Positions 1,302-30,175 of a DNA stretch of 64,000 nt are shown here, piece after piece. Below the pieces are notes generated by a model. It was given only the letters and a program-made list of their open reading frames with translations. It did no database searches and was not told the DNA's origin. The DNA is from Nitrospirota bacterium (GTDB lineage Bacteria > Nitrospirota > Thermodesulfovibrionia > UBA6902), in assembly GCA_039715075.1 (NCBI GenBank), contig JBDLIC010000001.1, positions 3,501-67,500 of the forward strand, in the 5' to 3' direction. The position numbers and the translations under genes were made by a program. Positions within the stretch are counted from its first letter, which is position 1; every line of letters begins with the position of its first letter.

Positions 1302-1787
1302 TCAGTGGATCGCTATCTTTTTGTGTTTCTTTTCAGATTCATTAATCGGGATCCTTACTTCGAGAACTCCATCCTCAAAGTGTGCTTTGATCTTTTCAAC
1401 ATCCATATCGCCGGGCATTTCAAACCTGCGGATGAATGAACCGAATGAACGCTCACACCTGCAGTAGTTTTCTCTCTCAAATTTATCTTTTCTCTTCTTT
1501 TCACCGGAGAGTGTCAGAATGTTTTCGCTAAGGTCAATCTTGATATCGTCCTTCTTGACTCCAGGAAGATCGATATTCATGACAATTTCACCGCCTTCCT
1601 TGAAAAGATCAACGCTCGGTGAAATCTCATAACGATCGTCCGTGCGGCGGTCAGTCCAGATCGATGGACCAAACAGTGAAAATGGTCTTTTCCATGACTC
1701 TTCAAACCAATGTTCCATATCATAGAATGGATCCAGATATCCGGGGCTTTCCCGCGTAACCAGTTTCTTTAATCCTTGGGCTGTCAT
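1302..1787 (-). CDS. Hsp20/alpha-crystallin family small heat-shock protein
   Basis: The translation carries the alpha-crystallin domain signature (…GVLEVRIP…). Confidence 0.85.
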   Translation of the reverse strand: MTAQGLKKLVTRESPGYLDPFYDMEHWFEESWKRPFSLFGPSIWTDRRTDDRYEISPSVDLFKEGGEIVMNIDLPGVKKDDIKIDLSENILTLSGEKKRKDKFERENYCRCERSFGSFIRRFEMPGDMDVEKIKAHFEDGVLEVRIPINESEKKHKKIAIH

Positions 1788-2443
1788 AATTCACACCCCC
1801 TTTCAGGAAGATATTTTCTCTCCTCCTAATTTTATTGTATACCTGATTTGCCGATAGTGCAACGATTATTTATCTTTATATTCTATATAGTTAAGCAGCC
1901 CATTTTAAGTGCCGCAGTGCAACAGTTCAACAGAGCAAAAGAGCGACGTATGTATTATGAACCGGGCTTAATATGATCCAGATCATATCAATTAATATGT
2001 ATCAGAGATAAAAAAAGAATAAACTATTTGCTGGTTTTAAAGACTGCATTTCTGACTGACCGGTAAGGGAGGTATGATTATGATTAAGGTGAAAACATTT
2101 ACGAACGAGTTGAAAATTTTACATGCAATGAATGAGCTGGAAGAACTGGATAATCAGGTCAACCGGTTTATCCGGGAAAGCAGCGTGGAGAAAGTCGTTT
2201 CTGTCTCGGACTCCTGTACGACCGGTGACGGCAGCACGATCGGAATAATCAGGGTACTGACCTACAAAGAGTCGAAACCGGCTGTTAAATAGTTACTCTT
2301 AGCTCCATGCAGAAAGGTTAAAAGATCAAAAAAAAAACAGCACAGAAGCGAGGACATTCCGGAATGTTAGTATCGCAAGTCAGAGTGTACCTGACAAGAT
2401 GGAGCATCCCGCTTTCTTCAAGGAGTAAGAAAGGAGGGTCAAA

Positions 2444-2869
2444 ATGACAAGCCTGACAAAAGAGAAGTTAATTGAATTATTAAACAGCGACCTTGCACTT
2501 GAGTATACTGCAATAGTTCAGTATACCCAGCATCAGGGTGTTTTAAAGGGCGCCATGTACCAGAGTATACAAAAAGAATTAATAATTCATGCCCAGGAGG
2601 AATTACAGCATGCAACAACCCTGGCCGCACAGATTGATTATTTGGGGGGGGTGCCTTCAGTTGATGTGCCATCGGCAAAGATCTCCAGTGATAACGTTAC
2701 AATGCTTCAGCAGGACCTTGATGGTGAGAATGATGCCATAGCACGTTACATAGCAAGGATAAGGCAGTCCGAAGAATTAGATCTTTACCATCTTGCTCAG
2801 CAGTTGAGAAATATACTAGCTATGGAACAGGAGCATGCAATGGACCTGGAGCAGGCACTGGGTAAATAA
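2444..2869 (+). CDS. bacterioferritin-like (ferritin-like di-iron) protein
   Basis: It has E-x-x-H di-iron motifs (EELQHA, EQEH) and a Bfr-like N-terminus (LN..LALE..AI.QY). Confidence 0.7.
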   Translation: MTSLTKEKLIELLNSDLALEYTAIVQYTQHQGVLKGAMYQSIQKELIIHAQEELQHATTLAAQIDYLGGVPSVDVPSAKISSDNVTMLQQDLDGENDAIARYIARIRQSEELDLYHLAQQLRNILAMEQEHAMDLEQALGK

Positions 2870-2955
2870 ATTTTAAAAACCGGAGAACTTAAAACCATTA
2901 ATCTCTGCAACAGCAGATCTGTATCCGAGAGGAGACAGCTTTCCTAAAGTCGTGA

Positions 2956-3192
2956 AGCAGCTTACGTCGAAAACCCCTCAAAAAACTTGTTCTCGCAGTT
3001 CCCGTAGCACCTCCGGAAACAATCGAATCCTTGCAAAAAGACGTTGATGACCTGCTCTGCCTGAGTACCCCGGCATTCTTCAGGGCTATTGGCATGCATT
3101 ACGTTGATTTCGAACAAACTACTGACGAGAAGGTTATTGAACTGCTTGATCTTGCAAGGGACCGGGTTTCATCAGACACAACAAAAGAATAA
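2956..3192 (+). pseudogene. C-terminal remnant of a phosphoribosyltransferase-like protein (no start codon)
   Basis: An open frame, SSLRRKPLKKLVLAVPVAPPETIESLQKDVDDLLCLSTPAFFRAIGMHYVDFEQTTDEKVIELL…, matches the conserved C-terminus of PRTase-family proteins. It begins directly after an in-frame TGA and has no plausible start. Confidence 0.5.
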
Positions 3193-3272
3193 ATTGATGG
3201 TTGAAAATTGAAGTGATATAAATATCTGTTTTTACTTATATGCAGGATAATGGGCATACTTAGAAGTGTCTG

Positions 3273-3713
3273 CTATCGCTTTTCTTCAGCAAGTGTTTTT
3301 ATACCGAGTATTGAACTCCATATATCATCATGCTCTTCTTCGTCTTTTACAATGTCGATAAGCAGCTGACGTGTTACCGGATCATCCAGTTTATCCGCCA
3401 GTTTTATGTGATTTTTATATTGCTTGATGGCCACCCTCTCTCCGGCAAGGTCATCCTGGATCATCTTTTTCAATTTCCCCCCCATTTTTATCTTATGGGG
3501 TTTGGCTGCAGGAGTTCCTCCCAGATATACTATCCTTTCAGCAAAGGCTTCCGCATGCTTCATCTCCACCATGGAAATGTTCCTGAATATTTCCTTGATC
3601 TCAGGACTTTCCATTCCCACTGCCATAACATGATGCCACATATATTGTGTTATTGCACCAAGCTCAAGGGCAAGATCAGAATTTAATGCGGCAATTAATT
3701 TTTCGTTAGCTAT
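3273..3713 (-). CDS. bacterioferritin-like protein (non-ATG start)
   Basis: The listed ORF is extended upstream in frame to …KGEVTIANEKLIAALNSDLALELGAITQYMWHH…, which gives a Bfr-type N-terminus. There is no ATG/GTG/TTG. An AAGGGGAGG RBS sits 5 nt before an ATA codon. Confidence 0.6.
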   Translation of the reverse strand: MANEKLIAALNSDLALELGAITQYMWHHVMAVGMESPEIKEIFRNISMVEMKHAEAFAERIVYLGGTPAAKPHKIKMGGKLKKMIQDDLAGERVAIKQYKNHIKLADKLDDPVTRQLLIDIVKDEEEHDDIWSSILGIKTLAEEKR

Positions 3714-3740
3714 GGTAACCTCCCCTTTGAATTAAATAGT

Positions 3741-4145
3741 TTATTTTTCTGTATCAGTATGCGGAGCGTGCCTGAAATCGACTATTCTGTCTACTTTTAC
3801 TGTCAATTTTCTCTCGACCTGCGGGACAGGCGCTTTGCTTTCTATCTCCGGAGCATACCCGTTGAGCATATGAAGCTCCTGCACCTCTTCACAATTGCCG
3901 AGCAACTGATATCCTGTGTCTGTTTTTGCGTCCCAGACCACAAGAGTTACATATTTATTGACAGCTAAATTGTCCACAGTAACCGGACAAAACCATGATG
4001 TGACTTCCACCTGTCCGTTGGGAGCAAGTTTTATTTTTCCTGCGGCAGCCATGTGGGGTAATCCTGATGCATCAGCAGTCGCTACGAATACATGACCCAA
4101 TTTTTCAGAAAGTGATACGACTTGTTTGAGCGTTTCCAGACTCAC
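3741..4145 (-). CDS. pyridoxamine 5'-phosphate oxidase-like FMN-binding family protein
   Basis: The ORF is 134 aa, and the PNPOx-like split-barrel call rests on overall composition rather than a specific motif. Confidence 0.5.
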   Translation of the reverse strand: MSLETLKQVVSLSEKLGHVFVATADASGLPHMAAAGKIKLAPNGQVEVTSWFCPVTVDNLAVNKYVTLVVWDAKTDTGYQLLGNCEEVQELHMLNGYAPEIESKAPVPQVERKLTVKVDRIVDFRHAPHTDTEK

Positions 4146-4509
4146 TCAATAAAACTCCTTTCTATTCCGGTGTCGGTTCGATACAAAGCACGCTATAATC
4201 AAATCACATGTATTAGTAAGAATATTATCATAAAATAAGAATTATTCAATGAAAAAATATGGGCAGATGAACACCCCCTGAAAATCTCCCTGCAGTTAAA
4301 CATAAAATACAGCCCGTCTTTCTTTTGACCGTTAAAAAGAGCTTATTAATTAGGGGCTTACAGACACTTGACAAGCGTTTTTATTTTGCTAAAATTTGTA
4401 TACGATATAATGACTTTTTATATGATTTTTATCATAGCCAATTTATTAAAACGACCATAATCTGAAATATGCTATTCATATTTTATATGAATACACGCAT
4501 AAAATAGTA

Positions 4510-5007
4510 ATGATAACAGGCAAAGAAGATTTACTGGCAGCGCTTAGTGAAGCATTTCTGATGGAGAAGGGCACAAAGGTTTTTTATACGGAAGCGGCTG
4601 AAAAGGCAGTCAATACTGAAGCCCAAAAAACTTTTACATGTCTTTCGGAATGGGAAGGGAAACATATGGATTTTATCCTGTTCCTCTACCGGGCAATTCA
4701 TGATGACAGAGATATAATGACTTATGAGGACTTTAAGAATAAAGCCGACGCGACCGTGACGGAAGCGGGAATTCCCATAAAAGACCTTGAGGCAAAGATA
4801 GAAAAATATTCCGTTACAGATGAATTGGGGGCGCTGACCCTGGCAATGGAGATTGAGGGCAAGGCATATAATATGTATCGCAGACTTTCCCGGTCTGCCG
4901 AAGATAAAAACGCAGGGATTGTATTTAATGAAATGATGGAACAGGAAGTCAAGCATGTTAATTACTTAAAAAAACTGAGAGTCAAACTCGCAAATATATA
5001 TGAATAA
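4510..5007 (+). CDS. rubrerythrin-family ferritin-like protein (no rubredoxin domain)
   Basis: It has E-x-x-H pairs (EWEGKH, EQEVKH). The upstream promoter reads TTGACA…TAAAAT. Confidence 0.65.
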   Translation: MITGKEDLLAALSEAFLMEKGTKVFYTEAAEKAVNTEAQKTFTCLSEWEGKHMDFILFLYRAIHDDRDIMTYEDFKNKADATVTEAGIPIKDLEAKIEKYSVTDELGALTLAMEIEGKAYNMYRRLSRSAEDKNAGIVFNEMMEQEVKHVNYLKKLRVKLANIYE

Positions 5008-5195
5008 AATCTTAAAAGAAGAACTTGTCGACAGGGAAGACCAAACCATTATCAACAGCATGCCTTTCAACTCCGCTGCTTTTATCGTAGACTAATCTCA
5101 GTTAATGAATTTATTTTCTTTCACTTATATGATTCATGTCATTATGGAAATGCCTGTTTTAGGGTATAATTTCATATATATCAAAAGGTGATATC

Positions 5196-5630
5196 ATGAG
5201 CGAATCTATTCATATCGTATGCCAGCACTGCAACAGCACGAATAATGTTCCGGAAAAAAAGATCACAGATAACCCAAAGTGCGGCAAGTGTAAAAAACTG
5301 CTGCTCAATACAGACCCCCTGGAGCTATCAAGTATCAGTTTCTACAAGCATATAAACAATAACCACATTCCTATTCTGGTAGATTTCTGGGCTTCCTGGT
5401 GCGGACCCTGTAAAATGATGGCGCCTGTTCTTGAAAAGGCCGCAGTTGAACTTCATCCCCGGATGAGGGTCGCAAAACTTAATACCGAATCAGAGCAGAG
5501 CATTGCCGCCAGCTATAATATCAGGAGCATACCCACAATGATTATTTTCAAAAGAGGACGGGAAATCGCCAGACAGTCCGGGGCAGTTGATCTGGCAAGC
5601 CTGATGCAGTGGGTAGAGGGACATATTTGA
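5196..5630 (+). CDS. trxC: thioredoxin 2 (N-terminal zinc finger plus WCGPC active site)
   Basis: It has CxxC…CxxC at the N-terminus and a WCGPC catalytic motif. Confidence 0.85.
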   Translation: MSESIHIVCQHCNSTNNVPEKKITDNPKCGKCKKLLLNTDPLELSSISFYKHINNNHIPILVDFWASWCGPCKMMAPVLEKAAVELHPRMRVAKLNTESEQSIAASYNIRSIPTMIIFKRGREIARQSGAVDLASLMQWVEGHI

Positions 5631-5673
5631 GCAGCACAAAACACTAAAGAAAATTTAATCGCTATGAACATAT

Positions 5674-7038
5674 TCAGACTTTTAGTTCTTTCCACCGCCC
5701 CTTTCTGAAACGTATTGTCATAACAATACCCTGAAAGTGCATAGATATAACCATGGCAATCCAGACACCAACTGCGCCGTAGCCGGCAGTGACAGCGAGC
5801 AGATACGCGAGCGGCAGACGGACTATCCATAGAGTGCTTACTATGACGATCATAGTACCTTTTGTATCTCCCGCCCCCTGGAGGCATCCTCCAAGAATAA
5901 GGCTGACTGCCATCAGAGGTTCGGAGAGCATCATGATCCTGAGATACCGGGCCGTCTCATCAAGAACATGACTGTCCTTTGCAACAATAGAAGAAACTTC
6001 AGCTGCCCATATAAACACAGGCAGCGCCATAAGGGTGACAAACGCAACCCCTGAATAAGATATTTTCCAGCCGATCCTCTCTGCCCTCCCGGGGAACCCT
6101 GCACCCAGATTCTGGCCGGTAAGCACGGACGCAGCCATGTTAAGAGCAAATATCGGGAGATATATCAGCGCCTCGATTCTGAGTCCGCTGGTAAGCGCCG
6201 CCATTGCGGTTATGCTCCCCTCCTGAAGACGGCCGAGGATGTTGTATAAAACGATATTGCCGGTGTTCCATGACACCTGGAGAAGGGCCGCGGGCCAGCT
6301 TAAATAAAATATCTTCCTGACCATATCAGCAGATACGTGCCAGTCTCCTGAAAATATATTTTTCCACCGGCTCCTCCTGAACAGAAAAATGCATATTATC
6401 ATACCTGCGGTCATGGCTATCGCGGTCGAATACGCAATTCCCCTGTACCCAAGCCCTTTAAAAGAAAAGATTCCGAAGACCAGAAGAAAATCGAGCAGAA
6501 TATTGATTACACTTACAAAGAACATCGCTGCAAGGGTAAGCTTCACCTCACCGCCAGAACGGAAGACCGCGTTTGAGATGATCACTATATAATTCGGGAC
6601 AAGGGCAACGGCAAATATCACAAAGAACTCCCCTGCAATTCCACTGATATCTCCGGAAAATCCTGCGAGGGTTATAAGCCTCTCATGAAACATAATTCCC
6701 GCTGCCATCAGGGCGAGGGCACATGCAGCCCCGAAGATCAGTGACTGTCTCGCCGTTGAGAGGGCGCTTCTGAAATCACCGGAGCCCACAGCCCTGGAAA
6801 GCATTGCCACGGTTCCTATGCTTATTGCATTAGCAACAATAATGATGAAAAAATAGAGTTCGCCGACAAAGCCTACTATGGCCTGAATTTCAGGGCCGAG
6901 AAATCCTGCCACATAAATATCGGTAAGACCCACAAGGAAATTTAAAAACATAACAAGCAGCATGGACCATGACATATGCCATATGTTCCTCCATGTACTT
7001 CCAGTTGTAAGATCTACCGCCGCTCCCTGCTTGTTCAC
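5674..7038 (-). CDS. MATE family efflux transporter
   Basis: The 454-aa product is a multi-TM protein with a MATE-like 12-TM repeat layout. Confidence 0.8.
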   Translation of the reverse strand: MNKQGAAVDLTTGSTWRNIWHMSWSMLLVMFLNFLVGLTDIYVAGFLGPEIQAIVGFVGELYFFIIIVANAISIGTVAMLSRAVGSGDFRSALSTARQSLIFGAACALALMAAGIMFHERLITLAGFSGDISGIAGEFFVIFAVALVPNYIVIISNAVFRSGGEVKLTLAAMFFVSVINILLDFLLVFGIFSFKGLGYRGIAYSTAIAMTAGMIICIFLFRRSRWKNIFSGDWHVSADMVRKIFYLSWPAALLQVSWNTGNIVLYNILGRLQEGSITAMAALTSGLRIEALIYLPIFALNMAASVLTGQNLGAGFPGRAERIGWKISYSGVAFVTLMALPVFIWAAEVSSIVAKDSHVLDETARYLRIMMLSEPLMAVSLILGGCLQGAGDTKGTMIVIVSTLWIVRLPLAYLLAVTAGYGAVGVWIAMVISMHFQGIVMTIRFRKGRWKELKV

Positions 7039-7212
7039 TTTGTCCTCCTCCTGTTACCGTTTCATTATATATTGATGCACTGCATTTGGTAAAAGGACCT
7101 GCAAGATCCATGATGTAGGGGCAGGTCTTGCGCCTGCCCTTTTTCAACCCTTCTCATAAGCCTTGAGCCTGGAGAAAATCCATGATATTATTCATTTAAG
7201 GGAGAAGTCTGA

Positions 7213-7968
7213 ATGTCGCATAAACATAAACACGGCCATCATCACGAAAGGATATCAAAAAGCAGGGAGTGGATGAAGACTCATAAGGACACTGACCGTG
7301 ACTCGTCTGCCAGAGATGCAAAACCAAAACTGGAGTTAGTCCTGAAGTGCGATTCTGCGGGAAGCATTGAGGCAGCCGCTGCCGCTATTTTGAATATAGC
7401 CAACGATGGAATTGATATAAATATCATAAACAGCGGAGTCGGCAATATAAATCATTCAGATATCTTAATGGCAAAAACAGGCAGCAGGCTCATAGCCGGT
7501 TTTCAGGTGAATGTGCTGCCGGGGATAGAAAAGGAACTGGATGAACACAATGTAGAAGTACGTCTTTATGACGTGATCTATGCATTAACCGCCGATATAG
7601 GAAACATAACGCAGAGCATAGCTCCCCATATTCCGGAGGAAGAAATTACGGGTACTGCCAAAGTAATAACCCTTTTTAAAAGCGTCCGCAAGGGGATCAT
7701 TATAGGTTGTGAAGTGTTAGAAGGCCAATTGTCTGTTCATAAACATTTCCGTATCATTTCCGCCATGGGCCCGGTTTATTCCGGCTCTATAGAATCCATG
7801 CATATAGAAAGCGCTTCTGTCCAAAAAGCATCACCGGGACAGCAGGTGGGGATAAAAATACAGAATTTCAACAAAGCAAAAACAGGGGACATTGTAGAAT
7901 GCTACCGACCGGTTGCTGCCGGGAAAAGCAAGGCATGGCAGTCAACAGGAACTGTTATCAGAAAATAA
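7213..7968 (+). CDS. stand-alone IF2 C-terminal-domain protein with a His-rich N-terminus
   Basis: Residues around 40-250 align by eye with IF2 domains C1-C2 (LVLKCDSAGSIEA…GFQVNV…IIGCEVLEG…GDIVECY). There is no GTPase domain. The N-terminus reads MSHKHKHGHHH. Confidence 0.6.
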   Translation: MSHKHKHGHHHERISKSREWMKTHKDTDRDSSARDAKPKLELVLKCDSAGSIEAAAAAILNIANDGIDINIINSGVGNINHSDILMAKTGSRLIAGFQVNVLPGIEKELDEHNVEVRLYDVIYALTADIGNITQSIAPHIPEEEITGTAKVITLFKSVRKGIIIGCEVLEGQLSVHKHFRIISAMGPVYSGSIESMHIESASVQKASPGQQVGIKIQNFNKAKTGDIVECYRPVAAGKSKAWQSTGTVIRK

Positions 7969-8098
7969 ATTACCTCACTAATGACAATACAGTCTCTATT
8001 CCCCTCTTTAGCAAAGAGGGGCCAGGGGAGATTTTTTAAAGAAACTTTTCGTAAAATCCCCCTTAATCCCCCTTTTCCAAAGGGGGAGACTTGAAAGA
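7960..8098. repeat. MITE-like palindromic repeat (family A), long copy
   Basis: The copy contains ttcccctcttt.gcaaagaggggc.aggggagattttttaaagaaa…aaaatcccccttaatcccccttttccaaagggggagacttgaaag. It is nearly identical to the copy at 25345-25477. Confidence 0.7.
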
Positions 8099-8121
8099 AA
8101 CATTTTTCATATATTATCCCA

Positions 8122-8487
8122 CTATAACGTATTTAAAAACGCAATTAAATCCTGAATATCCTCTTCCGAAAGGTAAGTAAAAGAGGGCATTCTCTCGTAA
8201 GGCTCCAGCAGTTGTCTTTTAATATTTTCAGGAGTTGCCGGCCTTTTGCTGACCGGGAGTTTAGACTGCCTGAGTATCCCCGCCATACCGGGGCCGACGC
8301 GGTCTCCGCTTCCATCAAGGTCATGGCAGAATGCGCACTTCAGATTAAATAGTTTATCTCCCCTTGCAATACTTTCAGGGTCTGTCCGTACATTGGAGTG
8401 TATATCCCCTGTTTCAGTGGACATTTTGCAGGCAAAAACAGGCCAGACAATTAATACAGATAATATTGCGAGCTTCAGAATCTTCAT
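8122..8487 (-). CDS. class I c-type cytochrome (secreted)
   Basis: It has a signal peptide and a CAFCH haem-binding motif. Confidence 0.65.
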   Translation of the reverse strand: MKILKLAILSVLIVWPVFACKMSTETGDIHSNVRTDPESIARGDKLFNLKCAFCHDLDGSGDRVGPGMAGILRQSKLPVSKRPATPENIKRQLLEPYERMPSFTYLSEEDIQDLIAFLNTL

Positions 8488-8648
8488 TGTTATAATTGTA
8501 TCAAATGCTGCCCTTTTGTCCTAAAAAAAGATAAACGGAGAATGACGGATGAACAAAAAATGACGATTGACGAAGGAACAGATGAACAGAAAATAGCGAT
8601 TGTCGTTTTTTTTTACTTCGTAAATCGTAATTCGTCAATCGTCATTCG

Positions 8649-9488
8649 TCAATTTCTTTTTACAGGCTCTTTCCCTGTCTTGTTAATAGAGTATTGACCG
8701 GGGTCGCCAATAAAGGGCAAGACCAGCATCCACGGCAGCGTCAGCCGTCCGGCATCCCTGAACTGTGACAGTCCAATGGTCATTCCCTCATGTCCCGCAG
8801 CAGGCTGATCACGATAAGTGCCCATAAGGCGGTCCCACCACGGAATATTAAAACCGAAGTTGCTGTTTGTTTCCCTGATTGTTACTGAATGGTGGACCCT
8901 GTGCATATCCGGGGTAACAACAAAGAGTCTCAGTACCCTGTCAATATGTGCAGGCAAGCGAATATTTCCGTGGTTGAACATTGCCAGGGCATTGAGCAGA
9001 ATTTCAAATATGAGTACAGCCAGCACCGGCGCACCGAGCGCTGCGACTGAACCCATCTTTATTATCATGCTGAGGACCATCTCGATTGGATGAAAACGGA
9101 GGCCCGTTGTTACGTCATAATCAAGATCAGCGTGATGCATCATATGGAGACGCCAGAGAACAGGCACTGCATGGAACATAACATGCTGGAGATAGATAAT
9201 CATGTCCAGCAGTACGACACAGCCAATGACCGCAAACCACCCCGGAACGGCAAGATTGTTAAAAAGTCCCCACCCATTCTCCTGTGCCGTAAACGCGATA
9301 TTAATTGCCATAACAGGAAATACCGCACGCACCAGGAATGTATTTACAACAATAATTCCAAGATTGCTTACCCAGCGCACGGTCTTGGACGTGTTCAGGG
9401 TCCGGCGCGGCGACCTGATTTCCCAGATTGCCACAATGATAAAGATGCCGAGAAAAAAAACGAGTCTGACTAAAGCTTCATTTTCCAT
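8649..9488 (-). CDS. sterol desaturase/fatty-acid hydroxylase superfamily membrane protein
   Basis: It carries histidine boxes HVMFH, HMMHH and HRVHH. Confidence 0.75.
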   Translation of the reverse strand: MENEALVRLVFFLGIFIIVAIWEIRSPRRTLNTSKTVRWVSNLGIIVVNTFLVRAVFPVMAINIAFTAQENGWGLFNNLAVPGWFAVIGCVVLLDMIIYLQHVMFHAVPVLWRLHMMHHADLDYDVTTGLRFHPIEMVLSMIIKMGSVAALGAPVLAVLIFEILLNALAMFNHGNIRLPAHIDRVLRLFVVTPDMHRVHHSVTIRETNSNFGFNIPWWDRLMGTYRDQPAAGHEGMTIGLSQFRDAGRLTLPWMLVLPFIGDPGQYSINKTGKEPVKRN

Positions 9489-9492
9489 TTTA

Positions 9493-9960
9493 TTATGCCA
9501 ACGATCTCCTGAAATCGCTCAGCCACACAATATGCTCCTTCTCTTCATTGATGATTTTATTTACAATTTCTTTTTCCTTTATAACATCCTTCAGGCTTAG
9601 GAAGTACAGCAGCGTTTCCTTTTCAAACCCGATGGCAAATCGGACAACATCAGCAATAGTTTCGAGGTGATCAAGAGAGGGGAGGGATTTATTTTTACCG
9701 AGAAAAAATTCTGATTCAACAATTGCCCGCAGATACTGTGACGCTTCTTCCCACCCTTCGAGATTCTGGTCCCCGATTTTTTCTTTCAACCCGGTGAATG
9801 TTTTTTCGTGTTCCTGCTCCTTCACTGCAAGTGTTTCAAAAAACTTCCTGAATTTTTCGTCCTTGTCAAACTTGTTTGCCATGCTTATATAGAACTCATA
9901 TCCCAGTTTCTCTGTCTGAACAGCCTGCTCAATTACCTCATTGATAGAATAGTTCTCCAT
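9493..9960 (-). CDS. rubrerythrin/ferritin-like di-iron protein
   Basis: It has EQEHEK and EEKEH motifs. Confidence 0.6.
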   Translation of the reverse strand: MENYSINEVIEQAVQTEKLGYEFYISMANKFDKDEKFRKFFETLAVKEQEHEKTFTGLKEKIGDQNLEGWEEASQYLRAIVESEFFLGKNKSLPSLDHLETIADVVRFAIGFEKETLLYFLSLKDVIKEKEIVNKIINEEKEHIVWLSDFRRSLA

Positions 9961-10022
9961 GTTTCCCTCCTCTTTTTCATGAATGCATAAAATATAAATA
10001 AGTGGATATATTTATGATTTGT

Positions 10023-11987
10023 TTATTTTAAATATTTTTTTTCTTTTAAAAAAGTTTTTAATTCCCCCGGATCATGAACAGGATCATAACAGGCACCCCT
10101 TATGCATGGTATTACAGACCCGCTCTCTTTTCCATAGACTATACATGTTGATACCCCAAAAAGAGAAGCAGATATTTTGGAAAGCTCACTGTCAGGGGCT
10201 GCATTCACACTAATTTTCACTGTATTAAAATACGCGTCAAGAGAAGAAAAATAGTATCCTGCATGTACATTAACTTCCATTGCCCTTTCATTAAAAGACC
10301 TCAGTGCCTTTTCAGCATATTCAAAGTATGTTGCCTTTTCTGTAATATAATGCAGTTTCAGCAGCAGTCTGATGGCAAGTGAATTTGCCGACGGACGGGG
10401 AATATCTTCTATTTCCCTGATCCTCAAATCCAGCAGATGATCGTCAGTATCAAAAAAACCTCCGTGCTCTCTGTCCCAGAGCCTCCCAACAGAGAGTTCC
10501 ATCAATTCATCTGCCCGGTCAATGTAAGACCTGTCAGCAGTCACTTCATATGCCTCAATCAGCGCATCAATCAGATGCACATAATCATCCAGCATCGCTG
10601 GAATCCCCTCTGTGTGAAAGAGCTTCCCGTCTGCATAGAAAGTTTCCATTATCCTGTTGAGACTTCTTAGCGCCAGGTCTTTCAGGCCGCTGTCCCCGAG
10701 TATTCTGTAACCCTGTAAAAATACTGATATCAGCATGCCATTGATTGATGTGTACAGGGTCTTGTCAATAAACGGCATCTCCCTTTTGTCCCTTTCCTTC
10801 AGCAGTTTCCCCTTACCGGAATCAGCTATTTTAATAACATCTTCAATATTCATACCTGTCTCTTCTGCAATTTCCTTTGCTCCCATAACCGCAAACAGGA
10901 CTTTTTTTGAACTGTCATGATGCATGGCACCCGATTCATGCATCAGATGAAGGGAAAGGACCCTGTATTCATCATCATCAAGTATCCTCCTGAAATCTTC
11001 ATCCGTCCAAGTGAAATATCCGCCTTCATCATCAGGCGTAACATCAGCGTCCTGGCTTACATAAAACCCTCCGTCAGGGTCAGAGAGAACATCTTTTATG
11101 AACCCTGTTATCCCGACTGCAACTTCCCTGTAAAATTGATCACCGAAGACAGCATACGCAGTCAGATAGTTTCTAAACAGCCATGCATTGTCATCAGCCA
11201 TTTTTTCAAAGTGGGGGATGGTCCATGCCTCATCTGTGGAATACCGGTGAAAACCTCCGCCAAGATGGTCGCAAAAACCCCCTGCAGCCATTGAATTCAG
11301 GGTGATCCGTATAGCATGCCCGATAGATTCATCTCCGGTCATAACGTATCTGTTTATGAGAAATTCTATAGCCCCGGGCATCGGGAACTTCGGAGCACTC
11401 CCGAAACCGCCGTTCTGCATGTCAATTCCTGTAAGAATCTTCTTAGCCGTTTCATCAAGCTGGATTTCGCTTATCTCCCCATCCGGCAGAGGTAACGGTT
11501 TGAGTGAATCGAGCAGTTTCCCCGTATATTCGGCTATCTCATCCTGTTTTGATCTGTAAAACTCTGAGACTGCCCTTAATACCTTTTTAAACCCGGGCCT
11601 CCCCATCCTGTCTTCAGGCGGGAAGTATGTGCCGCCGTAAAATGGTTTCTTGTCCGGTGTAAGAAAGATGCTGAGGGGCCATCCCCCTGATTCACCCATA
11701 GCAGCAACAGCCATCTGGTACCTCCGGTCAATGTCCGGACGCTCATCCCTGTCGAGCTTAATACTGATAAAATTATCATTCAGAAGCTTCCCGGTCTCGT
11801 CATCGTAAAAACTCTCTTTGGCCATAACATGGCACCAGTGGCACCAGACCGCCCCGGAGCTCAGGAATAAAGGCTTGCCTTCCTTCTTTGCTTTTTCAAA
11901 CGATTCTTCCGACCATGGATACCAGTCGATCTTCTGTCCGGCAGCATGTTTCAGATAGGCTGACCTTTCCTTGCTCAGTCGGTTCAT
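10023..11987 (-). CDS. thioredoxin-domain protein YyaL (DUF255 plus six-hairpin glycosidase-like domain)
   Basis: The N-terminus has a CHWCH thioredoxin-like motif. The product is 654 aa, and the YyaL architecture is inferred from that length and the N-terminal motif. Confidence 0.8.
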   Translation of the reverse strand: MNRLSKERSAYLKHAAGQKIDWYPWSEESFEKAKKEGKPLFLSSGAVWCHWCHVMAKESFYDDETGKLLNDNFISIKLDRDERPDIDRRYQMAVAAMGESGGWPLSIFLTPDKKPFYGGTYFPPEDRMGRPGFKKVLRAVSEFYRSKQDEIAEYTGKLLDSLKPLPLPDGEISEIQLDETAKKILTGIDMQNGGFGSAPKFPMPGAIEFLINRYVMTGDESIGHAIRITLNSMAAGGFCDHLGGGFHRYSTDEAWTIPHFEKMADDNAWLFRNYLTAYAVFGDQFYREVAVGITGFIKDVLSDPDGGFYVSQDADVTPDDEGGYFTWTDEDFRRILDDDEYRVLSLHLMHESGAMHHDSSKKVLFAVMGAKEIAEETGMNIEDVIKIADSGKGKLLKERDKREMPFIDKTLYTSINGMLISVFLQGYRILGDSGLKDLALRSLNRIMETFYADGKLFHTEGIPAMLDDYVHLIDALIEAYEVTADRSYIDRADELMELSVGRLWDREHGGFFDTDDHLLDLRIREIEDIPRPSANSLAIRLLLKLHYITEKATYFEYAEKALRSFNERAMEVNVHAGYYFSSLDAYFNTVKISVNAAPDSELSKISASLFGVSTCIVYGKESGSVIPCIRGACYDPVHDPGELKTFLKEKKYLK

Positions 11988-19821: not shown

Positions 19822-19940
19822 TACCTAATGACCTCCCCCTTTGGAAAAGTCGTAGATCCGATCCGGGGGGGATTGAGGGGGATTTTATGGAAATTTAATT
19901 TAAAAATCTCCCCTGACCCCTCTTTGCCAAAGAGGGGAAC
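19822..19940. repeat. MITE-like repeat family A (reverse orientation)
   Basis: The reverse complement matches the ttcccctctttggcaaagagggg…aaaatccccctcaatccccc…ttttccaaaggggg consensus. Confidence 0.65.
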
Positions 19941-22224: not shown

Positions 22225-22312
22225 CCTCCTTAAATCCCCCCTAACCCCCCCTTTTCCAAAGTGGGGAACTATGCAAGTCCCACTTTGGAAAAGGGGGATT
22301 TAGGGGGATTTT
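22225..22312. repeat. MITE-like repeat family A (short/inverted-dimer variant)
   Basis: The sequence reads cccctaacccccccttttccaaagtgggga…cccactttggaaaagggggatttagggggatttttt. Confidence 0.6.
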
Positions 22313-24970
22313 TTAATGCGCTTCCCCCCAGTTTAACCCAATCCCCATATCAACCTTGAGCGGAACGGAAAGATCAACCGCATTTTCCATTTCCTCCCGG
22401 ACCAGCTCCTGAATAATATCTTTTTCATTTTCCGGGACTTCGAATAACAACTCATCGTGGACCTGGAGAAGCATTTTTGTCTTTAACCCTTCTTTTTTCA
22501 ATCTCCTATGAATATTCAGCATGGATACTTTTATTATGTCAGCCGCCGAGCCCTGGACAGGTGTGTTGGTAGCAAGCCTCTCACCTAGCTGGCGTATATT
22601 TTTATTTGAGCTTTTCAGTTCAGGGATTGCCCTTTTTCTGTTAAAGATTGTCTTGACATATCCGTCCTTTGAGACCTTTTGTATTAATGAATCAATATAG
22701 TCCTTAACACCGCTGAACCGCGAAAAATATGTATCAATATAAAACTTTGCCTCATCAACAGGAATCCCGAGCTGCTGGCTCAGGCCATATGGACTCATAC
22801 CATAAACAATCCCGAAGTTCACGGTCTTGGCATTCCGCCTCATTTCGTCAGTCACTTTTTCAGCTGCAACTCCAAACAGCCCGCATGCTGTCCTTGTATG
22901 AATATCTCCGTCATTATTAAATTCATCAACAAGCTCTTTGTCCCCGCTGAGATGTGCAAAAACCCGGAGCTCTATCTGGGAGTAATCCGAAGAGAGAAGC
23001 AGGTTGCCCTTTTCAGCGATAAAGGCCTCTCTTATCTTTTTGCCCCATTCACCCCTGATCGGGATATTCTGGAGATTCGGAGCTGAACTGCTGAGTCTTC
23101 CCGTGGCTGTAATGGTCTGATTGAATGAAGTATGGATCCTGCCGGTCTTTGGATTTACAAGCCTTGGAAGGGCATCTACATATGTACTTTTGAGTTTTGA
23201 GAGTGCCCTGTATTCAATTATCTCTTTGGGCAGTTCATGCTGAAGTGCAAGCTGTTCAAGGACATCAATGTTTGTTGAATACCCTGTTTTAATTTTTTTA
23301 ATCGGTTTAAGGCCCAGCTTCTCAAAGAGAATTTCCTGGAGCTGTTTTGGAGAATTAATATTAAATTCATCACCCGCAATAAAATATATCCTCTTCTTAA
23401 TACTCGCGAGCTCCCTCTCCATTTTTTCTGAAAAAGATTCCATCAGCGGCAGGTCAATCTTTATACCCGCCATCTCCATATCAGCGAGGACTTCTATCAA
23501 AGGCACCTCTATATCATGGAACAGCCCTGACAACCCCTCTTTTTCAATTTCAGGACTGAATATCTCCTGCAACCTTAATGTAACAGCAGAATCCTCTCCC
23601 GAATACTCAGCGGCCTCATCAACAGGGACTTCACTGAAATCTTTCCTGTCTTTACCGACTATATCCTTGAATGAGATCTTTTGAATACCGAGCCGTTCCA
23701 TTGATACGTCAGTGAGGTTATGGTTTGCCTTGTTCGGGTTCAGCAGATAGGAGGCAAGCATTGTATCAAAAGCAACGCCTCTCACATCTATCCCTTCATT
23801 CCTTAAGACAATAAGGTCATATTTTATATTGTGGCCTGTTTTTTTGATTCCGGGATCTTCAAGAATCCCCTTCATCTCCTTAAGCACCAGGTCTTTGGAC
23901 AGCTGCTCAGGCATCCCCATGTAATGATGTGAAACCGGTATATAATATGCTCTCTCAGGGTTCACAGAAAAAGACACTCCCACGAGCTGCGCAGTCATGG
24001 GGAATTTCGAGGTTGTTTCAGTATCAATCGTAACTTCATCTTTTATCGAAGCAAGGGCCTTCTTCAGTGTGTCTTTATCCAGGACAGTTATGTATTCCGA
24101 CTTTACCGGTACGGGCGCCCTCCTGTCCGGGACCAGTTTCAGCAGACTGTTAAACTCGAACTCCCGGAAATACTCCTCCAGCTTTTCCCATTCAGGTTCC
24201 CGCAGCTCAAAATCGTTCATCGTGATATCAAGCTGAAGGTCTGTATGAAGGGTAGCCAGTTCTTTGCTGAGCCTTATATTTTCTATGTTTGCAGCCACTG
24301 CATTCTGCGCCCGCTTATTCTTTATACTGGAACAATTATTAATCACCTCTTCAAGGCTCCCGAATTCTTTCAGGAGTTTCACCGCGGTTTTTTCACCTAT
24401 CCCGGGCGCTCCCGGTATATTGTCCGATGCGTCCCCCATCAACGCCAGGATCTCAGGGAACTGCGAAGGCTTGACTCCGAAACGTTCAACCACATCCTTC
24501 TCTTCCGTGATCTTCTCTTTCATGCTGTCATACAGGCGGACCTTCTTTGTTATAGACTGACACATGTCTTTGTCCCCGGTAACAATGTATACATCTATCC
24601 CGGATGATTCAGCCTGTTTCGAGATGGTCCCGAGCAGATCGTCAGCCTCGTAACCTTCCATTTCAATCGTAAATATGTTGAAGGCATGCATAATGTCTTT
24701 TATCAGCGGGAACTGCGGCCTCAGGTCATCGGGCATCTCAGGCCGGTGGGCCTTGTACTCTTCGTACATTTTATGTCTGTGGGTCGGGCCCTGTGTATCA
24801 AATACAATCCCGAAATAATCAGGATTTTTCTCTTTCAGGATCTTGAATATCATATTGGTAAAACCGAAAACAGCATTCGTAGGCACCCCTGAAGACGATG
24901 TCAGGCCCCTTATTGCATAAAAAGCACGATAGACATAGGAGTTCCCGTCTATGAGATAAAGTGAAGGCAT
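22313..24970 (-). CDS. polA: DNA polymerase I
   Basis: The 885-aa product has a 5'-3' exonuclease, a 3'-5' exonuclease and polymerase motifs. Confidence 0.9.
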   Translation of the reverse strand: MPSLYLIDGNSYVYRAFYAIRGLTSSSGVPTNAVFGFTNMIFKILKEKNPDYFGIVFDTQGPTHRHKMYEEYKAHRPEMPDDLRPQFPLIKDIMHAFNIFTIEMEGYEADDLLGTISKQAESSGIDVYIVTGDKDMCQSITKKVRLYDSMKEKITEEKDVVERFGVKPSQFPEILALMGDASDNIPGAPGIGEKTAVKLLKEFGSLEEVINNCSSIKNKRAQNAVAANIENIRLSKELATLHTDLQLDITMNDFELREPEWEKLEEYFREFEFNSLLKLVPDRRAPVPVKSEYITVLDKDTLKKALASIKDEVTIDTETTSKFPMTAQLVGVSFSVNPERAYYIPVSHHYMGMPEQLSKDLVLKEMKGILEDPGIKKTGHNIKYDLIVLRNEGIDVRGVAFDTMLASYLLNPNKANHNLTDVSMERLGIQKISFKDIVGKDRKDFSEVPVDEAAEYSGEDSAVTLRLQEIFSPEIEKEGLSGLFHDIEVPLIEVLADMEMAGIKIDLPLMESFSEKMERELASIKKRIYFIAGDEFNINSPKQLQEILFEKLGLKPIKKIKTGYSTNIDVLEQLALQHELPKEIIEYRALSKLKSTYVDALPRLVNPKTGRIHTSFNQTITATGRLSSSAPNLQNIPIRGEWGKKIREAFIAEKGNLLLSSDYSQIELRVFAHLSGDKELVDEFNNDGDIHTRTACGLFGVAAEKVTDEMRRNAKTVNFGIVYGMSPYGLSQQLGIPVDEAKFYIDTYFSRFSGVKDYIDSLIQKVSKDGYVKTIFNRKRAIPELKSSNKNIRQLGERLATNTPVQGSAADIIKVSMLNIHRRLKKEGLKTKMLLQVHDELLFEVPENEKDIIQELVREEMENAVDLSVPLKVDMGIGLNWGEAH

Positions 24971-25344: not shown

Positions 25345-25477
25345 TAACTTTATTAATGATAATGCAATCTGTATTCCCCTCTTTGGCAAAGAGGGGCTAG
25401 GGGAGATTTTTTAAAGAAATTATTCGTAAAATCCCCCTTAATCCCCCTTTTCCAAAGGGGGAGACTTGAAAGGAGAA
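25345..25477. repeat. MITE-like repeat family A, long copy
   Basis: It is near-identical to the 7960-8098 copy. Confidence 0.7.
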
Positions 25478-30114: not shown

Positions 30115-30175
30115 TATTATTTTAAAAAATCCCCCCTCGCCCCCCTTTTCCAAAGTGGGGATTAAGAGGAAACCC
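30115..30175. repeat. MITE-like repeat family A (short copy)
   Basis: The sequence reads aaaaaatcccccctcgccccccttttccaaagtgggga. It is flanked by the near-identical decamers gcagagacag and gcagagactg. Confidence 0.6.

Follow-up and report, generated by a model that had tools for sequence, protein, structure and literature searches.

We describe here a gene in a 64,000-nucleotide stretch of DNA from a Nitrospirota bacterium (GenBank assembly GCA_039715075.1, contig JBDLIC010000001.1, positions 3,501 to 67,500 of the forward strand; this whole stretch is called the window below) whose product consists of the C1 and C2 domains of translation initiation factor 2 (IF2, encoded by infB) and has no GTPase domain. 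This IF2-derived module forms a new, uncharacterized stand-alone family that is conserved, chromosomally encoded and under clear purifying selection. The barrel fold of C2 has been kept, but the chemistry with which IF2 reads the formylmethionine (fMet) of the initiator tRNA has been swapped for another that is itself conserved in the family. Judged from its sequence, the protein is probably an RNA-binding, translation-related protein, as yet uncharacterized, and not a broken or spare IF2. The gene and the parts of its product, in window coordinates, are as follows.

7213..7968 (including the stop codon), + strand: coding sequence of the GTPase-less IF2 C1-C2 paralogue, 251 residues; open reading frame (ORF) and profile matches
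7213..7323, + strand: N-terminal tail, residues 1 to 37, disordered, basic and His/Lys-rich, beginning MSHKHKH; predicted local distance difference test score (pLDDT) <50 at residues 1 to 34
7324..7620, + strand: C1 domain (IF2 domain III), residues 38 to 136, with Tyr123 on helix 12; PF11987, pLDDT mostly >95
7639..7911, + strand: C2 domain (IF2 domain IV beta-barrel), residues 143 to 233; GTP_EFTU_D4/D2, 1D1N and the structure model
7795..7812, + strand: remodeled beta4-beta5 loop, S195-M-H197-I198-E199-S200, in place of IF2 S-L-[KR]-R-[FY]-K; alignment
7843..7851, + strand: remodeled beta5 motif, Q211-V212-G213, in place of IF2 E-C-G; alignment
7912..7965, + strand: C-terminal extension, residues 234 to 251, with Trp242 and a terminal beta-strand, family specific; alignment and model

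Homology to IF2 and extent of the family

The ORF begins with ATG, and the N terminus of its product reads MSHKHKHGHHHER; the protein is identical (100%) to the database entry P0001, "hypothetical protein ABFR82_00085 [Nitrospirota bacterium]." Its homology to C1 plus C2 of IF2 is real and far beyond chance. The Pfam IF-2 domain (PF11987) matches residues 33 to 129 (E 1.1e-25, 90.3 bits against a cutoff of 27), GTP_EFTU_D4 matches residues 158 to 228 (E 4e-5, 23.9 bits against a cutoff of 23.8), and GTP_EFTU_D2 also matches. The NCBIfam model TIGR00487 for IF-2 aligns residues 32 to 235 with its positions 378 to 581 of 587 (E 1.9e-41), the score of 142.5 bits comparing with an equivalog cutoff of 424.4. 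In HMMER, residues 688 to 883 of E. coli IF2 (chain 3jcj_f) align with the protein at E 6.6e-30, and all four matches on which an earlier note had based its alignment by eye with C1/C2 recur there: klelvlkcdsagsieaa pairs with EVNIVLKADVQGSVEAI, liagfqvnv with ILVGFNVRA, giiigcevleg with GAIAGCMVTEG, and tgdivecy with TGDVIEVF. The C2 part also matches the C-2 domain of B. stearothermophilus IF2 (1D1N; E 2e-11). As that note had claimed, there is no GTPase domain; no Pfam or NCBIfam model of the G domain (GTP_EFTU) or of domain II matches the protein, and tblastn hits only the C-terminal end of IF2. On its sequence, then, the protein cannot be a GTPase.

Structure prediction agrees with the profiles. 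An AlphaFold2 model built from a 30-sequence family alignment (mean pLDDT 85; 181 residues at ≥90) shows an alpha/beta C1 domain at residues 38 to 136 and a six-strand beta-barrel at residues 143 to 233, the pLDDT over C2 being mostly 89 to 97, with one 10-residue block at 80. The top matches of this model in a Foldseek search of the PDB are bacterial IF2s in 70S and 30S initiation complexes (E 1e-19, probability 1.00).

A first search of 5.8 billion proteins returned 433 matches; the best 120 came mostly from metagenome-assembled genomes (MAGs) of Nitrospirota/Thermodesulfovibrionales and were all 209 to 300 residues long and 50 to 100% identical to the window protein. With a divergent member as the seed, another search returned at least 467 clusters at E <= 1e-20 (the 120 listed are all short) and added MAGs of Desulfobulbaceae and Desulfobacterales as well as Candidatus Sulfobium mesophilum; the short form is thus conserved across Nitrospirota/Thermodesulfovibrionales and Desulfobacterota. 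When 1.84 billion cluster representatives were searched exhaustively, about 20 full-length short representatives were recovered at 130 to 225 bits (40 to 54% identity), and below a gap in the scores there were only canonical IF2s (<=124 bits, 25 to 37% identity). The GTDB species genomes gave a similar picture, with the short form in at least 14 species followed by an abrupt drop in identity to canonical infB. These carriers span Nitrospirota, Thermodesulfovibrionales, a Thermodesulfobacteriota single-amplified genome (SAG), Syntrophobacteraceae, Desulfobulbaceae, Desulfobacterales and "Deltaproteobacteria," and every carrier seen is a MAG or a SAG. One member, P0067, is encoded on the complete genome CP070788.1 (GCA_020346765.1), and three others (P0119, P0291 and P0333) lie on contigs of 0.69 to 0.91 Mb.

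In a neighbor-joining tree of the C1-C2 region, the family formed one clade in 50 of 50 bootstraps, with a stem length of 0.39 substitutions per site, and its identity to canonical IF2 representatives was 33 to 35% throughout, none being noticeably closer. On this evidence, the family goes back to a single origin from an IF2-like ancestor, and it is now about equally distant from every bacterial IF2 sampled. Similarity singled out no parent or host-lineage IF2, the representatives being 33 to 35% identical to the family and 43 to 52% identical to named control loci. An 885-residue ORF of the window, at 22313-24970, was considered as the host infB and rejected; it is DNA polymerase I. The GC content of the gene is that of its flanks. 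Viral contigs (IMG/VR) yielded no relative of the family, plasmid records held canonical infB only and no short form, and no PADLOC defense model matched the protein; a defense system and phage or plasmid cargo were rejected on these grounds.

The earlier note had offered two readings of the gene, as a decayed infB duplicate or as a functional stand-alone factor. If an infB had been duplicated or disrupted, a nonfunctional 3' remnant of it would, like this gene, cover just the last ~200 residues of IF2 and be annotated as a "hypothetical protein." It would not be expected, however, to have hundreds of intact orthologues of 209 to 300 residues in two phyla with many invariant positions (14 invariant columns in the 30-sequence alignment, with 41 more conserved at ≥90%). 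The gene is an intact short ORF in 24 of 24 independent loci: in 20 of them an ORF scan gave 226 to 289 residues even from the most upstream possible start, and at four further loci the gene was called at 243 to 253 residues. Moreover, tblastn with two full-length IF2s against 21 loci (the window and 20 related loci) matched only the last ~200 to 260 residues of the queries, and neither G-domain remnants upstream nor frameshifts were found. The promoter, Shine-Dalgarno sequence and start-proximal motif are conserved as well, and so are the replaced pocket residues described below, which argues for selection for a new function. Decay is effectively refuted. The other option fits far better, given hundreds of clusters, purifying selection, monophyly and a gene that is always a short ORF with its own signals.

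The C1 domain, the fMet-A76 pocket and the tails

Residues were compared across 136 family members, the C-terminal regions of 92 canonical IF2s and the C-2 domain of B. stearothermophilus mapped by nuclear magnetic resonance. In C1, 37 of 99 columns are conserved in the family and in canonical IF2 with the same residue class. The signature common to both groups comprises K45, D47, G50, S51, E53, A54, G75, G77, D83, A87, G96, F97, R117, Y119, I122, Y123 and D128, and the shared motifs are K-x-D-x-x-G-S-x-E-A, G-x-G, S-D-x-x-x-A, G-F and R-x-Y-x-x-I-Y. Tyr123 is the counterpart of E. coli Tyr772, a universally conserved helix-12 residue; in the 70S initiation complex this residue adjoins the sarcin-ricin loop (PMC4783127).

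The C2 domain has fared differently. In E. coli IF2, the pocket for fMet-A76 is made up of F804, F809, I812, C815, S844, R846, R847, F848, K849, E860, C861 and G862 (PMC4783127). Five of these 12 are kept in the window protein (F155, I163, C166, S195 and G213), and seven are replaced (F809 by K160, R846 by H197, R847 by I198, F848 by E199, K849 by S200, E860 by Q211, and C861 by V212). Among the 136 members, K160 occurs in 85%, H197 in 88%, I198 in 82% and E199 in 62%; in beta5, the first position is Q in 59% and K in 26%, the second V in 67% and A in 30%, and the third G in 97%. The corresponding figures for the 92 canonical IF2s are K/R 96%, R 78%, F/Y 67% and K 84% in the R846-K849 columns and E 94%, C 98% and G 100% in beta5. 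A second description of the pocket, by Gualerzi and Pon, lists R654, Q655, F657, G667 and E713 (PMC4611024); three of these five are replaced in the family (R654 by I in 92%, Q655 by A in 84%, and E713 by Q/K). In addition, R685, present in 98% of canonical IF2s, is S in 91% of the family, and R677 is V/L.

The beta4-beta5 loop, including Arg847 and Phe848, cradles fMet in IF2 (PMC4783127). The half of the pocket retained in the family is that which stacks on A76 and the backbone (F155, I163, C166, S195 and G213), and the altered half is that which reads formyl-Met. Since the substituted residues are themselves conserved, we take the change to reflect a new function and not decay. The earlier note's view that the fMet-tRNA-binding barrel is apparently intact therefore holds for the fold, to which both the model and the Foldseek matches attest, and fails for the binding pocket, of whose 12 residues only five are kept.

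Both ends of the protein carry extensions. The N-terminal tails of the family have a median length of 36 residues, a net charge of +5.2 and 9% His, and commonly start M-[ST]-H-K-H-K (H3 in 59%, K4 in 51% and H5 in 57% of members). The C-terminal tail (median 23 residues) has W-x-[PAST], mostly W-x-P, in 116 of 121 members. Its columns are gaps in 95 to 100% of canonical IF2s, which end just past the barrel; in the model of the window protein, residues 241 to 251 have a pLDDT of >90 and residues 248 to 250 form a strand. The charge of C2 has also shifted, to +4.2 in the family versus -0.4 in canonical IF2 (p = 1e-31); that of C1 is -5.8, and the whole protein carries +5.9.

The window protein has 7 His within its first 13 residues, from which the earlier note had suggested metal binding. 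A metal-binding or metallochaperone role through this N terminus would be in keeping with the 9% His of the family tails and with H3 and H5 in 57 to 59% of members. Nevertheless, three or more consecutive His residues are found in just 7 of 121 members, many tails are short or His poor, metal-handling genes are not consistently linked in the loci examined, and the His residues alternate with Lys/Arg in a disordered tail, a typical pattern for extensions that bind RNA. The His run is a peculiarity of the window protein and close relatives and not a trait of the family, and the conserved basic N-terminal tail looks more like a nucleic-acid-binding tail than a metal site. We regard a metal-binding role as highly improbable.

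An in-frame ATG lies within the tail at 7273 (Met21), preceded by GGGAG, and could give a 231-residue product without the His/Lys-rich start; one relative, P0005 (231 residues), is called from the Met21 position. Members of both phyla conserve M-x-H-K-H-K, an argument for the first ATG as the true start.

These comparisons also bear on the possibility of a split IF2, in which infB of these lineages would lack C1-C2 and the present gene would supply the fMet-tRNA-binding half in trans. The homology does begin exactly at the C1 boundary, and the C1 signature residues are fully kept. A half acting in trans should nonetheless be under the same constraint as when fused, and 7 of 12 pocket residues are replaced, including those at Arg847/Phe848 and Glu860/Cys861. 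An identity of 33 to 35% to all canonical IF2s and a long stem are unlike recent gene fission, no IF2 G-domain gene is adjacent in the 21 loci screened, and the tails at both ends are family specific. Furthermore, a full-length IF2 with C1-C2 (P0220, 874 residues) is present in at least one "Deltaproteobacteria" MAG. The pocket substitutions, the length of the stem branch and the tails all tell strongly against a split IF2, which we consider highly improbable on these sequence grounds.

Taken against bacterial IF2 as a whole, the family shares ~200 residues of homologous sequence and fold, the C1 motifs and the helix-12 Tyr, and it keeps the barrel core together with equivalents of Cys815, Gly814, Gly862, Phe804, Ile812 and Ser844. 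Bacterial IF2, on the other hand, has an N-terminal domain, a G domain, domain II and the H8 linker, all four of which are absent from the window protein, and it lacks the family's basic N-terminal tail and Trp-containing C-terminal tail; the family stands apart as a long-stem clade with a C2 charge of +4 versus about 0. Its hallmarks are a length of 215 to 295 residues, the basic N-terminal tail, I-S-A-M-G-P in beta3-beta4, S-[ML]-H-I-E in the beta4-beta5 loop, G-Q-[QK]-[VA]-G in beta5 and W-x-P in the C-terminal tail, and the window protein has all of them.

Among the other short IF2-C matches in the representative library, most represent canonical IF2s cut off by a contig end, and their KRFK/ECG pocket is intact. 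Two Lys/Asn-rich C1-C2 proteins with their own Met start, P0200 (227 residues) and P0244 (215 residues), fall outside the family at ~33 to 34% identity, with pocket motifs GKIIGL and GMKCGI in place of G-x-E-C-G; they may represent stand-alone IF2-C lineages of separate origin, and their composition suggests low-GC source genomes. P0148 (377 residues) and P0228 (652 residues) have two PF11987 copies each, P0228 with a G domain in addition, and represent either an unusual duplicated architecture or an assembly artifact. In P0161 (323 residues), a glycosyltransferase family 2 N terminus is apparently fused to IF2 C1-C2; this is probably a chimeric contig or gene call.

Possible function and relation to known systems

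Our preferred reading, which we hold tentatively and with somewhat less than even confidence, is that the protein is an RNA-binding accessory factor that acts on the translation machinery as a ribosome- or tRNA-associated modulator and is not an initiation factor. On the ribosome, the C2 domain of IF2 has uL16, H89 and H71 as its neighbors at the peptidyl-transferase center, and the sarcin-ricin loop lies at the interface of C1 and the G domain (PMC4783127). With its IF2-type C1 signature, the Tyr that adjoins the sarcin-ricin loop, and a basic barrel and tails, the protein could occupy the docking site of the C-terminal half of IF2, close to the peptidyl-transferase center on the 50S intersubunit face, with the sarcin-ricin loop on one side and H89/uL16 on the other; alternatively, it could dock on the acceptor end of tRNA. 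Because it would neither cycle GTP nor deliver fMet-tRNA, it would presumably act by occupancy or competition, modulating or blocking the access of IF2 and other factors, or else it may bind the tRNA 3' end with a different specificity. It may do so under stress, as suggested by the recurrence of HSP20 and other stress-type genes (Usp, DEAD-box helicase, MsrB, rubrerythrin and thioredoxin) near members of the family.

A bolder version of this proposal, possible in our view but doubtful, is that the family represents an unrecognized class of GTPase-independent translation factor, with a re-specified pocket (Cys166, His197, Glu199 and Gln211) that has ceased to read formyl-Met, which would bind a tRNA 3' end or the 50S subunit on its factor-binding and peptidyl-transferase side and would silence or re-route initiation under stress. 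Such a factor might be an IF2 antagonist, a hibernation-type factor, or a binder or hydrolase of nonformylated or aberrant aminoacyl-tRNA, and its setting would be slow-growing anaerobic sulfate reducers and syntrophs.

It is also conceivable, if rather unlikely, that the protein works off the ribosome, its pocket (Cys166, His197, Glu199 and Gln210/211) binding, protecting or hydrolyzing the acceptor end of free tRNA with a new specificity or activity, be that tRNA aminoacylated, peptidylated or deacylated. This overlaps with the accessory-factor reading and differs in that the protein would act on free tRNA. The isolated C2 domain of IF2 suffices to bind fMet-tRNA and even fMet-ACC fragments (PMC4611024), the pocket residues that stack on A76 and the backbone have been kept in the family while those that read formyl-Met have changed, C2 and the tails are basic, and the archaeal protein Pbp11, discussed below, offers a precedent. 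A role on free tRNA alone would leave unexplained the retention of a whole C1 domain with its ribosome-proximal Tyr, and no tRNA-metabolism genes are linked in the loci examined.

Among the neighbors of the family, a small heat-shock protein gene stands out.

1302..1787, - strand: HSP20 small heat-shock protein; Pfam HSP20, 9.7e-24

This HSP20 is clearly orthologous, by similarity, to those directly upstream of the family gene in two related loci (L088 and L089). In L018, L088 and L089 the HSP20 gene directly precedes the family gene and has the same orientation; the distance between the two is 3.4 kb in L003 and 5.4 kb in the window. One might suppose from this that the protein is a nontranslational proteostasis or heat-shock partner of HSP20 in which the IF2 domains have been reused as a protein-binding scaffold, and chaperone-like activity has been reported for IF2. 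The chaperone activity of translational GTPases was, however, mapped to the G domain (PMC3505967), which is absent here. In addition, HSP20 is missing at 19 of the 24 loci, a terminator separates its transcription from that of the family gene, and the charge pattern of the protein fits nucleic-acid binding. We consider this explanation improbable; HSP20 is a weakly linked neighbor and a separate transcription unit. In L088 (5930-6003), the called start of the family gene lies 9 nucleotides past the T-tract of the HSP20 terminator, leaving no space for a promoter; this implies that transcription reads through the terminator from HSP20 or that the start was called wrongly.

Several observations weigh against an accessory factor that acts on translation under stress. 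The ribosome affinity of bacterial IF2 comes from its G2/G3 domains together with C1 (PMC4783127), and C1-C2 alone may thus bind ribosomes weakly. The near-invariant basic residues R654, R677, R685, K699, R700 and K702 of IF2 are lost in the family, so that any contact with RNA must be made in a manner different from that of IF2. The predicted template modeling score of 0.56 leaves the relative orientation of C1 and C2 uncertain in the model. As to stress, the presence of HSP20 within 6 kb at 5 of 24 family loci versus 0 of 66 control (canonical infB) loci (Fisher p = 0.001) speaks for a link, but the controls were drawn from other phyla. The four Nitrospirota HSP20s are mutually orthologous, with shared motifs, and must therefore be counted as one ancestral linkage, with L018 alone independent (about two events), and a terminator of its own follows the HSP20 gene. 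No neighbor is conserved across the family in an all-versus-all BLAST of the neighbors at 21 loci. Finally, evidence of expression was sought in the metaproteome paper on Ca. Sulfobium, and none was found there.

Our searches of full-text literature and a 2026 survey of IF2 architecture yielded no description of a GTPase-less IF2 paralogue, and NCBIfam has no dedicated model for the family. Database labels for its members are "hypothetical protein," "translation initiation factor IF-2" (JGI) and "IF-2; GTPase-like." Short forms of IF2 itself occur naturally as the isoforms IF2-2 and IF2-3 (beta/gamma). N-terminal truncations of E. coli IF2 have also been engineered (PMC12919033). Like the family, these are shorter IF2-related products without N-terminal regions; unlike it, they derive from infB, keep the G domain and the fMet-tRNA pocket and remain initiation factors, whereas the family gene is separate and has neither G domain nor that pocket. 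Conceptually, the accessory factor proposed here would resemble Balon. Balon is an aeRF1-like hibernation factor, a translation-factor homologue that binds the ribosome independently of a GTPase. The likeness is one of translation-factor-derived domains without catalysis that occupy a factor site under stress. Balon has no homology to the family, for which ribosome binding is a prediction.

A precedent is offered by Pbp11 of Thermococcales (Q9UZY3; PDB 7ANU), a stand-alone barrel whose binding of tRNA needs its N-terminal tail (PMC9540759). Like the window protein, it is a free-standing barrel of the translation-factor type with no GTPase and a tail in front. It differs in being archaeal and small (~11 kDa, ~100 residues), in consisting of a single barrel like domain II of EF-Tu without C1, and in its PAN-proteasome partner. 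The Pbp11 model NF041207 matches the C2 part of the window protein at E 2e-4, with 20.8 bits against a cutoff of 100. By analogy, the basic disordered N-terminal tail and basic barrel of the family may permit a similar tail-dependent binding of tRNA.

In practical terms, the IF2 label assigned by automatic pipelines is misleading; it may make a genome seem to hold two infB genes or may mask a missing infB in a MAG. More fundamentally, a widespread paralogue with C1 and a barrel, no GTPase and a rewritten pocket would be a natural experiment on the C-terminal half of IF2 alone. If binding to the ribosome or to tRNA were borne out, the family would be an initiation modulator or hibernation-like factor of a new type, belonging to energy-limited anaerobes of environmental importance (Thermodesulfovibrionia, Syntrophobacteraceae, Desulfobulbaceae and Desulfobacterales).

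Expression signals and genomic neighborhood

Flanking the gene are a divergent MATE transporter gene (5674-7038, - strand) and a convergent cytochrome c gene (8122-8487, - strand); the following signals were predicted around it.

7163..7191, + strand: predicted sigma-70-type promoter with an extended -10, TTGAGC-17-TG-n-TATTAT; promoter scan, consensus match
7198..7205, + strand: Shine-Dalgarno sequence AAGGGAGA, 7 nucleotides before the ATG; read from the sequence
8001-8021 and 8067-8087 (element 8001..8087), strand not assigned: two G+C-rich hairpins between the gene and the convergent cytochrome c gene

With its own predicted promoter, which ends ~22 nucleotides 5' of the start codon, and its own Shine-Dalgarno sequence, the gene is predicted to be an independent transcription unit. 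An extended -10 (TGATAnCAT / TGATAATAT) recurs 20 to 45 nucleotides upstream in seven related loci (L002, L003, L007, L009, L087, L089 and L090), and GGAGG/GGGAG motifs precede the start in most related loci. A k-mer enrichment analysis upstream of the family genes recovered only the Shine-Dalgarno sequence and the extended -10. A conserved 5' RNA element or stress operator was considered and rejected; Rfam gave nothing credible, its matches being miRNA-like ones below threshold, which coincide with the hairpins downstream, and SorX (E 0.86).

The hairpin region contains two inverted repeats and folds at -45.2 kcal/mol (z = -3.5); the hairpins probably terminate both convergent genes. Their sequence recurs elsewhere. 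The palindromic repeat CCCCYYTTT-NNN-AAAGRGGGG is found at seven intergenic sites of the window (8001-8021, 8067-8087, 19917-19937, 22246-22266, 25376-25396, 25442-25462 and 30140-30160), with 16 strand-wise matches versus 0.06 expected, and the paired layout at 8001/8067 recurs at 25376/25442. This dispersed palindrome looks like a repetitive extragenic palindromic (REP)-like element or a terminator-hairpin element of the genome.

A conserved operon partner of the family gene was sought and rejected, the apparently conserved ORFs being antisense shadows of the gene itself. The immediate neighbors vary and include Usp (L001), DsrE plus MsrB (L002, L009 and L012), a DEAD-box helicase (L006), rpsA-sppA-hup (L001 and L087) and a sigma-54 activator (L090). 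Two distant loci, L001 (1-2531) and L087 (2898-5780), share rpsA (S1), sppA (peptidase S49) and hup (HU) upstream; in L087 the family gene comes straight after hup, and in L001 four genes, including Usp, are inserted between.

The window itself is rich in stress and redox genes from 1302 to 11987. Besides HSP20, these surroundings of the gene include the following.

3741-4145, - strand: PNPOx-like protein
4510-5007, + strand, and 9493-9960, - strand: rubrerythrin-like proteins
5196-5630, + strand: thioredoxin 2 with an N-terminal Zn ribbon
8122-8487, - strand: c-type cytochrome
8649-9488, - strand: fatty-acid hydroxylase family protein
10023-11987, - strand: DUF255 thioredoxin-domain protein

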